Virus record (IMG/VR): IMGVR_UViG_3300024312_000003
Span: 32,001 to 96,000 of that record
DNA length: 64,000 bases
Origin: a virus
Reading direction: 5' to 3' (one strand)
Numbering within the stretch: the stretch's first letter is position 1; each line of letters starts with the position of its first letter. The position numbers and the translations under genes are program-made. Positions 50,559 to 53,356 of this stretch are shown here, piece by piece. The notes under the pieces are model-generated. The model saw nothing but the letters and a program-made list of their open reading frames with translations, had not been told where the DNA came from and searched no databases.

Positions 50559-50888
50559 TTAATACCTATTAGTACCTTCTACTGCACGCTCTAGTCTGTC
50601 TTTAGTTCTTTTTGCAAAAGCTTCATTTGCTTTGTTCAGGTGAAAGATAGCTTCGTCATTCTCACAACAAGGAAGAATGTTGTTCAAAATCTTTGTTCGA
50701 TCAAGCAAAATCTCAAGAAGAATTTCATTAGTCAAACCATTCAATCCAGCATTATCGATTGGACCTGATTGAAAATTTAATTTGATCTCTGTCCTATTAG
50801 CAAGATTGACAGTGTAATTAGTTCCTTGCTTACCTTTGCTTTCATCAAGAATTACAGTATCACAAGTTTCGTAAACCAAACGAGGCAT
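50559..50888 (-). CDS. Tad1-like anti-defence sponge protein
   Basis: FQSGP...NGLTNEILLEILLDR...ENDEAIFHL......KRTKDRLERAVEGT matches the Tad1 family pattern as recalled. Confidence 0.7.
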   Translation of the reverse strand: MPRLVYETCDTVILDESKGKQGTNYTVNLANRTEIKLNFQSGPIDNAGLNGLTNEILLEILLDRTKILNNILPCCENDEAIFHLNKANEAFAKRTKDRLERAVEGTNRY

Positions 50889-50897
50889 GATATTTCC

Positions 50898-52919
50898 TTA
50901 AGATAATAATTGATTGAACTCGGTTTCACTCAAAATGGGAACTCCGAGTTTCTCGGCTTTTTGATACTTTGACTTTGGGTTTAATCCAGCAATCAAATAT
51001 GAAGTGTTTTTAGAAACAGATCCCGACACTTCACCACCATTGGACTTAATGATGGATTCATAACTTAGTCTTGGTTTGGATAAAGTTCCGGTTATAACAA
51101 ATGATTTACCAGAGAAGATATTGCTTACAGTTTCAACCTTGTCATATTGAATATTAACCAGGTTACTTAGTTCAACAATCTTATCCAGATTGTTTTTGAT
51201 GTAATTGATTACACTTGTTACTCTAGCTGGTCCAAAGCTATCAACCAAAGACAATTCATCTGCAGTTGTATTGATAAGCTCATCGACATGCTTAAAACGA
51301 TCTGCTAGTTTTTCAGAATATCCTTTATTGATACCGTCTATTGCTAGGGAGCAAATAAATCTAGAGAAAGAAACATCTCTGGATTTGTTAACCTGATCAA
51401 TTATGTTCTGAATTGTTTTATGTCCGTAACCAGCCAGTCTTCCAAGTACATTGTAATCAACTTTATAGATATCATTAGGCTCAGCAATAGCGTTTAAATC
51501 GATCAGATCGCTTATGGTTGCTTCTCCGAGACCATCTATGTCCATACACTGCTTCGATACGAAATAACTCAACCTGGTGAGTTTTTGATCGGGACACTTA
51601 AGATTGCCTGTACAGTAATGATCTGCTCCATCTTTTATAACAGCAGAACCACAAGACGGGCAACCGATTGGCGGAGTGTAGATTACCTCAGATCCATTAC
51701 GCATGTGTGTAACCGGCTCAACGACTTCAGGAACAACATCGCCCGCTCTTTGAACCACCACCCAATCGCCGATTCTCAAATCTTTTCTCAAAATTTCACC
51801 TTCATTGTGCAGTGTGCAATTGCTAACCGTCACACCGCCAACAAACACAGGTTCCAATTTAGCAACAGGATTAATTGTTCCTGTTCTTCCGACTTGATGA
51901 TCGATAGATAGTAGTTTTGTAATTACCTTCTGAGGCTCAAACTTATAAGCGAATGCCCATCTCGGAGCTGTTAGAGTATTACCCATCAGTTGCCGATGGT
52001 GTAAATTATCGATCTTGTAAACAATACCGTCTATTTCAAATGGTAAATCATTTCTGATTTCTTCTTGTGTTTTGAAATAACTCAAACAATCATCAATGCC
52101 TCTGAGTAGACGACTGTGTTTTTCAACATCTTCAAATCCGAGTAGTGAAAACAACCGAATATTGATGTGGTGTGATGTAACAGCAATATCCAAATCACTT
52201 CCACGAGTGTTCATTGCGTAAGGCATGAACATGGCGTCAGACATTTCTGCGTATTTTGTATCGAGTTGTCTGATAACACCAGCAATTGCGTTTCTGGTGT
52301 TCTTATATGGTTTTTGTTTATCTTTTTCTCTCTCAGCATTTAGAATACTCATACTGGACTTTGGTAGAATTATCTCACCAATAATTTCCAATATAGAATA
52401 TTCCGAACCTTCTTTTATATTTTTTATTTTCTTAGGAACATTTTTTATTTTGCTAACGGTGTGTGTTACGTTTTCACCTTCGACACCATTACCTCTTGTG
52501 ATTGCTTGCGATAGTACTCCATTGACGTAAATTAACTTACAAGATAATCCGTCATACTTTAGCTCAGCAACCATGTCGACAAAACTAGGTTGAATTTTAA
52601 GCAGATTGCAAATTGCAATAATTTTAGAAAATGCTTCGTCACGATTGAGAGCATTATCAAGGGACAGCATGGGTGTCTCGTGTTTGACTGCTTCTAGTTT
52701 CGTGGTGAAATCAGAACCCACCAACTGAGTAGGGCTATCGCTATCAATCAATTCAGGATGCTGTCTTTCGATTGACTCTAGTCTTTTCTTAAGCGAGTCG
52801 AATTCTTCATCACTGATGACGGGATCATTTAGATCGTAGTATTGTTTACTGAAATGAATCAGATTTGATTTCAGTTCTTTGTACTCTTTAGAAATTGATC
52901 CCGTCATTTTAAAACTCAC
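50898..52919 (-). CDS. ligA: NAD-dependent DNA ligase
   Basis: PMLSLDN, ELKYDG (adenylation Lys), TRGNG, DGIVYK, AYKF, VGRTG, Zn finger CPSC...C...C and C-terminal BRCT. Confidence 0.97.
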   Translation of the reverse strand: MSFKMTGSISKEYKELKSNLIHFSKQYYDLNDPVISDEEFDSLKKRLESIERQHPELIDSDSPTQLVGSDFTTKLEAVKHETPMLSLDNALNRDEAFSKIIAICNLLKIQPSFVDMVAELKYDGLSCKLIYVNGVLSQAITRGNGVEGENVTHTVSKIKNVPKKIKNIKEGSEYSILEIIGEIILPKSSMSILNAEREKDKQKPYKNTRNAIAGVIRQLDTKYAEMSDAMFMPYAMNTRGSDLDIAVTSHHINIRLFSLLGFEDVEKHSRLLRGIDDCLSYFKTQEEIRNDLPFEIDGIVYKIDNLHHRQLMGNTLTAPRWAFAYKFEPQKVITKLLSIDHQVGRTGTINPVAKLEPVFVGGVTVSNCTLHNEGEILRKDLRIGDWVVVQRAGDVVPEVVEPVTHMRNGSEVIYTPPIGCPSCGSAVIKDGADHYCTGNLKCPDQKLTRLSYFVSKQCMDIDGLGEATISDLIDLNAIAEPNDIYKVDYNVLGRLAGYGHKTIQNIIDQVNKSRDVSFSRFICSLAIDGINKGYSEKLADRFKHVDELINTTADELSLVDSFGPARVTSVINYIKNNLDKIVELSNLVNIQYDKVETVSNIFSGKSFVITGTLSKPRLSYESIIKSNGGEVSGSVSKNTSYLIAGLNPKSKYQKAEKLGVPILSETEFNQLLS

Positions 52920-52921
52920 TT

Positions 52922-53356
52922 TTAAATCGTTCCATAAAGTCCAATTAGTCTCTGGACAGCTCGTTGATCTTCAGGATCACAATTCTTACTGGCTTGCTGA
53001 AGCAGTGATCCGTTCTCATGTTCCAGCGTGATTGTAAACTTTGTGATTTTTGAAGCCATTGTTCGAATGTAGTGACAAATCACAACTCTATTGACAACAT
53101 CCATGCTATACGACAAACCCGAACACAGAAGAGCCTCATCGTCTCTTTGGAATTTGGTTAAAGTTTCATCGTTGTGTAGTTCTACCAAACGCTGATAGGT
53201 GGGTTCGTATTTTTGTCTCAGCTCTTGAGCTGGATTTAATTCAGCATTAAAATTACTGCATTCTAGAGCAGTCTTATTAAGCAAAGTAACTAGTTGACGA
53301 AATGCCGAATCAGTCAACATCAGCTTCTTGGTGACTCTGGAAGGAATTTTAAGCAT
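52922..53356 (-). CDS. Hypothetical protein
   Basis: 144 aa ORF overlapping the upstream gene. Confidence 0.55.
   Translation of the reverse strand: MLKIPSRVTKKLMLTDSAFRQLVTLLNKTALECSNFNAELNPAQELRQKYEPTYQRLVELHNDETLTKFQRDDEALLCSGLSYSMDVVNRVVICHYIRTMASKITKFTITLEHENGSLLQQASKNCDPEDQRAVQRLIGLYGTI

Follow-up and report, generated by a model that had tools for sequence, protein, structure and literature searches.

The 180-kb linear IMG/VR virus record whose bases 32001–96000 are analysed here (this whole stretch of 64,000 nucleotides is called "the window" below) encodes a 109 amino acid protein that is a genuine member of the Tad1 family of immune-signal sponges, an assignment fully supported by sequence, profile and fold. 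It is an ordinary free-standing member of that family and not a new kind of system. Made from a DNA ligase operon, it is probably a cytoplasmic sponge, at least a head-to-tail dimer, that encloses gcADPR and/or cyclic dinucleotides and is without the canonical trinucleotide site; its dimerisation, ligand identity and phenotype are inferred.

The gene is an ATG-started open reading frame of 109 codons on the minus strand, and its translation matches the peptide quoted in the initial annotation. The surrounding open frame is 112 codons in total, with just three codons before the ATG, so a longer form of the protein is impossible at this locus; the sole open reading frame on the opposite strand has 42 codons. 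The gene and the neighbours that matter here are the following:

50559..50888, minus strand: free-standing Tad1-family coding sequence, 109 amino acids (open reading frame, phmmer, profile, AlphaFold2, Foldseek and dN/dS evidence)
50895..50899, minus strand: AAGGA, a Shine-Dalgarno-like motif 6 nt before the ATG that overlaps the stop codon of the ligase gene
50898..52919, minus strand: complete NAD-dependent DNA ligase (LigA), the upstream gene (Pfam Nlig-Ia, adenylation, OB, Zn-finger, HhH and BRCT)
52922–53356, minus strand: 144 amino acid protein of no assigned function, overlapping the DUF488-N3a gene and kept in contig L006
53349–53762, minus strand: DUF488-N3a protein, upstream of the ligase (PF22751, E 8.5e-12; PHROG 2450), kept in contig L006
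50254..50520, minus strand: conserved 88 amino acid protein, downstream of Tad1 (PHROG 21988, E 1e-6)

These lie in a minus-strand run that contains, in order, a dCTP-deaminase-like gene, several genes of no assigned function, the DUF488-N3a gene, the 144 amino acid protein gene, the DNA ligase gene, the Tad1 gene, and genes for 88, 166 and 113 amino acid proteins, again of no assigned function. The Tad1 ATG lies 9 nt past the TAA of the ligase gene. The 88 amino acid downstream protein contains five cysteines and has no Pfam match, and its gene is probably co-transcribed with the Tad1 gene. A 17.7-kb metagenomic contig from a related phage (L006) has the identical gene order, the same AAGGA motif and a Tad1 orthologue that is 82% identical; dN/dS between the two Tad1 genes is 0.10 at a dS of 1.19, indicating a real protein under strong purifying selection, and that of the 88 amino acid protein and its L006 orthologue is 0.08. 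Megablast of the 6 kb around the Tad1 gene against phage records gave no match, and a search for related loci in viral contigs with the Tad1 protein alone gave no confirmed relative. A LigA-Tad1 read-through fusion (50886–50900) was also considered, as the two genes are in the same frame and 9 nt apart here; the spacer is 10 nt and out of frame in L006, so the shared frame is probably a coincidence.

The Tad1-family assignment made in the initial annotation holds at every level of comparison. A phmmer search of all PDB sequences matched only Tad1 entries and the phage phiKZ protein gp184, with E values of 8.2e-8 for CmTad1 (8KBB), about 3e-3 for CbTad1 and 4.9e-4 for gp184 (8Y6V chain I), and the protein also matches PHROG 2428 (E 6.8e-26). 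A word-indexed protein search found just two close relatives; the family becomes visible in an exhaustive phmmer search of 1.84 billion representatives, which gave 2087 relatives at E<=1e-3 and 127 at E<=1e-10. A family profile built from 100 of these relatives matches CmTad1 at 5e-25 (residues 22–131 of 132), CbTad1 at 3e-20 (residues 7–124 of 125) and gp184 at 5e-18 when run against the PDB. By tblastn 101 phage records contain the Tad1 domain; among the proteins that carry it is the Tad1 annotated in RefSeq for Bacillus phage SPG24, to which the window protein is 38% identical over 90 residues by BLASTP (pairwise E 1e-16). Neither Pfam nor PADLOC gave a match for the window protein, and Pfam has none for any of phiKZ gp183–187, gp184 among them, so the Pfam miss reflects poor model coverage and is not counter-evidence. 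In a FastTree phylogeny the window protein groups firmly with its own two orthologues alone (support 0.997) and, beyond them, loosely with short metagenomic proteins; neither gp184 nor gp131 of Burkholderia phage FLC9 joins it, with weak support for the deep branches.

An AlphaFold2 model of the protein, made with an alignment, has a pLDDT of 94 and a pTM of 0.78. DSSP places strands at residues 3–7, 11–15, 24–29 and 35–39 and helices at 54–71 and 75–100, which together with the alignments gives three parts:

50772..50882, minus strand: N-terminal four-stranded antiparallel beta-sheet, residues 3–39 (DSSP on the model), with T23 at the CbTad1 H29 position
50589..50729, minus strand: C-terminal two-helix hairpin, residues 54–100 (model and HMMER alignment mapping)
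50562..50588, minus strand: C-terminal tail, residues 101–109, including G105-T106-N107 (aligned to CbTad1 G120 and N122)

An invariant loop, F39-Q40-x-G42 by the column tallies, follows just after the sheet. The HMMER alignments place R64, L68, L72, N77, R94 and R98 of the pocket on the hairpin, together with substituted trinucleotide-site and hexamer-interface positions (C75, F82, H83, N85, K86, E89 and A90), and the tail corresponds to the lid with which CbTad1 covers its ligand. Absence of a Tad1 fold had been named at the outset as a result that would count against the assignment; Foldseek of the model against the PDB instead returned Tad1 structures only (TM 0.83, E 2.4e-7; 8KBB and 7UAW), the top 17 matches all being Tad1 and the next non-Tad1 fold appearing at E 0.8, and its matches in BFVD are Tad1-type phage proteins. 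The likeness to the Clostridium prophage proteins CmTad1 and CbTad1 (PDB 8KBB–8KBH, 7UAV, 7UAW and 8SMD) thus includes the fold, full-length profile homology and the G-T-N lid motif; the window protein differs from them in its length (109 versus 122–125 amino acids, with shorter sheet loops), and identity is 22–27%. With the Tad1 proteins of the Bacillus phages SBSphiJ7 and SPG24, the founding and experimentally verified clade, it has FQxGP, EN and R..R...EGT in common, whereas the 142 amino acid SPG24 protein, unlike the window protein, has the canonical C-R-E-N, T and W of the trinucleotide site and hexamer. Acb2 (anti-CBASS 2) works in a similar way, as a small homo-oligomer sequestering cyclic nucleotides, and UniProt groups the helical hairpin as an "Acb2/Tad1 hairpin domain", but it is a different family, and no Acb2 structure was matched in the PDB sequence or Foldseek searches with the window protein.

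Residues were mapped onto CbTad1 and CmTad1 through the HMMER alignments, with functional residues taken from Leavitt et al. (bioRxiv 10.1101/2022.05.03.490397) and Li et al. (PMC10680739). Eleven CbTad1 residues contact gcADPR: H29, G55, R57, R78, F82, F87, N92, R109, R113, G120 and N122 (bioRxiv 10.1101/2022.05.03.490397); F82, N92, R109 and R113 are pocket residues shown by mutagenesis (PMC10680739), and H29 contacts the ribose-ribose linkage on which gcADPR specificity rests (bioRxiv 10.1101/2022.05.03.490397). R90 of CbTad1 (R88 of CmTad1) is the phosphate-binding arginine of a separate cyclic-trinucleotide site, and R88, T95, K96, Q98, E99, M102, W103 and K106 of CmTad1 form the interface of the hexamer, a trimer of dimers, W103 being a hexamer interface residue (PMC10680739). 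The trinucleotide-site pair R90/T97 of CbTad1 is reported to be kept in about 94% of homologues. Column tallies below are from a 154-sequence alignment of the query, its best 150 relatives, FLC9 gp131 and phiKZ gp184:

gcADPR pocket, CbTad1 G55: G42 in the window protein; G in 151/154
gcADPR pocket, CbTad1 R78: R64; R in 153/154
gcADPR pocket, CbTad1 N92: N77; N in 153/154
gcADPR pocket, CbTad1 R109: R94; R in 153/154
gcADPR pocket, CbTad1 R113: R98; R in 154/154
gcADPR pocket, CbTad1 G120: G105; G in 149/154
gcADPR pocket, CbTad1 N122: N107; N in 58/154
gcADPR pocket, CbTad1 H29: T23; H in 98/154, T in 8/154
gcADPR pocket, CbTad1 R57: I44; V in 82/154, I in 52/154 (CmTad1 also has Ile)
gcADPR pocket, CbTad1 F82: L68; L in 117/154, F in 29/154
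gcADPR pocket, CbTad1 F87: L72; F in 101/154, L in 17/154
Trinucleotide site, CbTad1 R90 (CmTad1 R88): C75; R in 9/154 only, Glu or Asp being commonest
Trinucleotide site, CbTad1 T97 (CmTad1 T95): F82; T in 17/154
Hexamer interface, CmTad1 K96, Q98, E99, M102, W103 and K106: H, N, K, E, A and K; at the W103 position W in 21/154, A in 69/154

Seven of the eleven gcADPR contacts are therefore identical in the window protein, a count that is consistent with gcADPR binding but no proof of it, and among the residues tested by mutagenesis N77, R94 and R98 are identical to those of CbTad1 and only F82 is changed, to L68. In the profile of 100 relatives F39, G51, R64 and R98 are invariant, and N77, R94 and G105 are present in 90% or more. 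Both adenosine-touching aromatic residues are lost, with Leu at the F82 and F87 positions, and the hexamer interface keeps one residue of its eight (CmTad1 K106, K93 here). The family pattern given in the initial annotation agrees with CbTad1 in the HMMER alignment, and the differences it listed are present (LPCC in place of PFSSR and no Trp, with EN, DR..R and EGT kept), but its description of a divergent pocket needs to be divided. Only the F of PFSSR, CbTad1 F87, belongs to the gcADPR pocket; the R belongs to the trinucleotide site and the missing W to the hexamer interface, the counterparts of N92, R109 and R113 are all kept, and Leu at the F82 position is what most of the aligned sequences have. 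The phiKZ and FLC9 proteins gp184 and gp131 likewise lack the Arg and Thr of the trinucleotide site and the Trp of the interface. Loss of the trinucleotide site does not decide Tad1 membership, since gp184 too is without the Arg and Thr, and loss of R, T and W is by itself no argument for a new ligand, since it is the norm in the relatives and common to gp184.

The modelled protein has the Tad1 wedge, a four-stranded sheet with two long helices, and by analogy with the solved Tad1 proteins two such subunits would pair head to tail to enclose two pockets per dimer. The adenine would lie between R94 and L68, its Hoogsteen edge recognised by N77; the diphosphate would be held by R94 and R98 and the riboses by R64, G42, G105 and N107, with the C-terminal tail as the lid over the ligand. 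The signal of type I Thoeris, TIR-made glycocyclic ADP-ribose, would be trapped in pockets of this kind, perhaps along with CBASS cyclic dinucleotides, so keeping the host effector off. As the protein has neither the Arg nor the Thr of the trinucleotide site and keeps one of the eight hexamer residues, canonical binding of cA3 or cAAG is improbable, and the protein may not assemble beyond the dimer.

The initial annotation proposed that the sponge may bind a different signal. Such a shift in ligand, to His-ADPR, N7-cADPR or another TIR-made ADPR isomer, a cyclic mononucleotide or a signal not yet described, would be due to three pocket changes, H29 to T23, F82 to L68 and F87 to L72, and we consider it unlikely. 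The combination T-L-L is found only in the window lineage among the 154 aligned sequences, and it is kept in orthologues that are 98% and 82% identical, except that the latter has V for T (V-L-L); the first of the three positions is the one that contacts the linkage on which gcADPR specificity depends, and retargeting is known for sponge families such as Tad2 and Acb2 (PMC12393519). These lineage-specific changes lend the proposal weak support. Against it, the adenine, diphosphate and ribose core is intact (N77, R94, R98, R64, G42, G105 and N107), most of the subclade has Leu at the F82 position, and CmTad1 binds gcADPR although it has Ile in place of R57 (PMC10680739). A survey of sponges collected 1,587 non-redundant Tad1 homologues from IMG/VR and assayed 20 diverse ones, which inhibited only CBASS and type I Thoeris; none of the 20 acted on Pycsar or on type II or IV Thoeris (PMC12393519). 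It is improbable that the T/V plus Leu/Leu pocket, in a protein without the trinucleotide site and hexamer interface, is the sign of a Tad1 subtype that has been retuned to a signal not yet assigned to Tad1, for which another TIR-derived ADPR isomer or conjugate would be a candidate; if this were true, the window protein could serve as bait to recover that signal from the host.

The phiKZ protein gp184 (PDB 8Y6V chain I) is from the same broad phage lineage, has the domain in common with the window protein at 34% identity, and like it keeps N, R and R of the pocket, but at the R78 position gp184 has Leu and the window protein Arg. A published capsid model places gp184 among the minor proteins of the inner vertex complex (PMC11297242). 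A phiKZ transposon study calls gp184 Tad1, citing Li et al. 2024, and describes it as non-essential, its N-terminus as wedged in the capsid and its C-terminal part as released by the head protease and injected (PMC12676376); a 2026 review citing the same work gives the same description and adds that gp184 blocks CBASS and Thoeris (PMC13282480). Since gp184 is already published as Tad1, a Tad1 in a chimallivirus-like phage is not new. A virion-packaged, injected or structural role like that of gp184 is nevertheless very unlikely for the window protein. The same domain does occur inside a capsid, reportedly for injection, and several phage homologues are annotated as structural proteins, but the gp184 anchor is an N-terminal extension of about 120 residues with a protease site, in a protein of 230 amino acids, and the window gene has three codons before its ATG and no room for such an extension. 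It also lies at a different locus, in a replication/accessory operon behind DNA ligase and not among head genes, and the tree, with weak support, places its product with the short metagenomic proteins.

FLC9 gp131 (L002:5206–6222) shows another arrangement of the domain. It is a 338 amino acid fusion of a cyclophilin-type prolyl isomerase (PF00160, E 2.5e-44) with a C-terminal Tad1 domain, and over its last 70 residues it is 41% identical to the window protein. The window genome has its cyclophilin as a separate gene (record positions 125273–125749), about 43 kb from Tad1, and the product is 63% identical to the FLC9 cyclophilin. Orthology between the window Tad1 and gp131 was considered and rejected, as the FLC9 neighbours match the cyclophilin locus and not the Tad1 locus, and the tree separates the two proteins (with weak support). 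On these same grounds, the FLC9 neighbours and the tree, the window Tad1 is a separately placed module and not a positional orthologue of gp184. The gene that adjoins the FLC9 fusion encodes gp132 (250 amino acids; L002:4435–5187), which aligns with the central part of the phiKZ major capsid protein model (PF25620, E 2e-14) and also with the window capsid gene, and it looks like a truncated capsid-protein paralogue.

N-terminal extensions of 40–290 residues are present in 36 of the 154 aligned Tad1 sequences, including gp184 and gp131. Two of the extended homologues carry a fused WDGH domain (PF25311), and most extensions have no Pfam match; the extended homologues may be packaged forms like gp184. 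We note that Tad1-domain proteins of phages other than phiKZ are annotated as "putative structural protein" in NC_020873 (Bc431v3 orf166), MT151604 (P59) and BFVD entry A0A7R8MJE9 (Klebsiella phage Eowyn), which hints that virion packaging of Tad1 may extend beyond phiKZ.

Finally, that the protein has kept the Tad1 fold but is no longer a sponge, and instead binds a host or phage protein or a housekeeping nucleotide, is highly improbable. In favour of it, the trinucleotide site and hexamer interface are lost, and in the survey 19 of 84 sponge homologues tested (about a quarter) inhibited none of seven systems (PMC12393519); against it, the gene is under strong purifying selection and the invariant residues are exactly the ligand-contacting ones.

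The phage that carries this gene is related to phiKZ. The major capsid protein belongs to the phiKZ type (PHROG 3231), with the closest match in Burkholderia phage FLC9 (47% identity) followed by Ralstonia phages RP12 and RP31; the helicase gene and a PHROG-annotated polymerase gene of the 180-kb record are also phiKZ-like. The initial annotation described a nucleus-forming phage, and this is a plausible and reasonable inference from relatedness, given the capsid type and the chimallin homologue encoded by FLC9 (E 8e-29 to phiKZ gp054), but searches of the record, whose completeness CheckV estimates at 65%, by tblastn and phmmer with chimallin, PhuZ and gp055 of phiKZ and the FLC9 chimallin homologue detected none of them. 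As the FLC9 chimallin gene is located far from the FLC9 capsid gene, the chimallin gene of the window phage may fall outside the 180-kb fragment. NAMPT (PF04095) and Tad2 (PF11195) are likewise absent from this 65% complete record.

The window phage is thus one more uncultured phiKZ-like phage that carries a Tad1 sponge, which is consistent with the view that phages protected by a protein shell still need protection from small-molecule signalling defences. The residue map of this part of the family, gp184 included, shows the gcADPR/dinucleotide pocket to be invariant and the trinucleotide site and hexamer interface known from the Clostridium and Bacillus proteins to be mostly absent, so that, judged from these alignments, the "two-pronged hexamer" model in the literature is probably not valid for these homologues from jumbo phages and metagenomes. 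Related giant phages use the Tad1 domain in three ways: free-standing in the window phage, packaged in the capsid in phiKZ, and fused to cyclophilin in FLC9.
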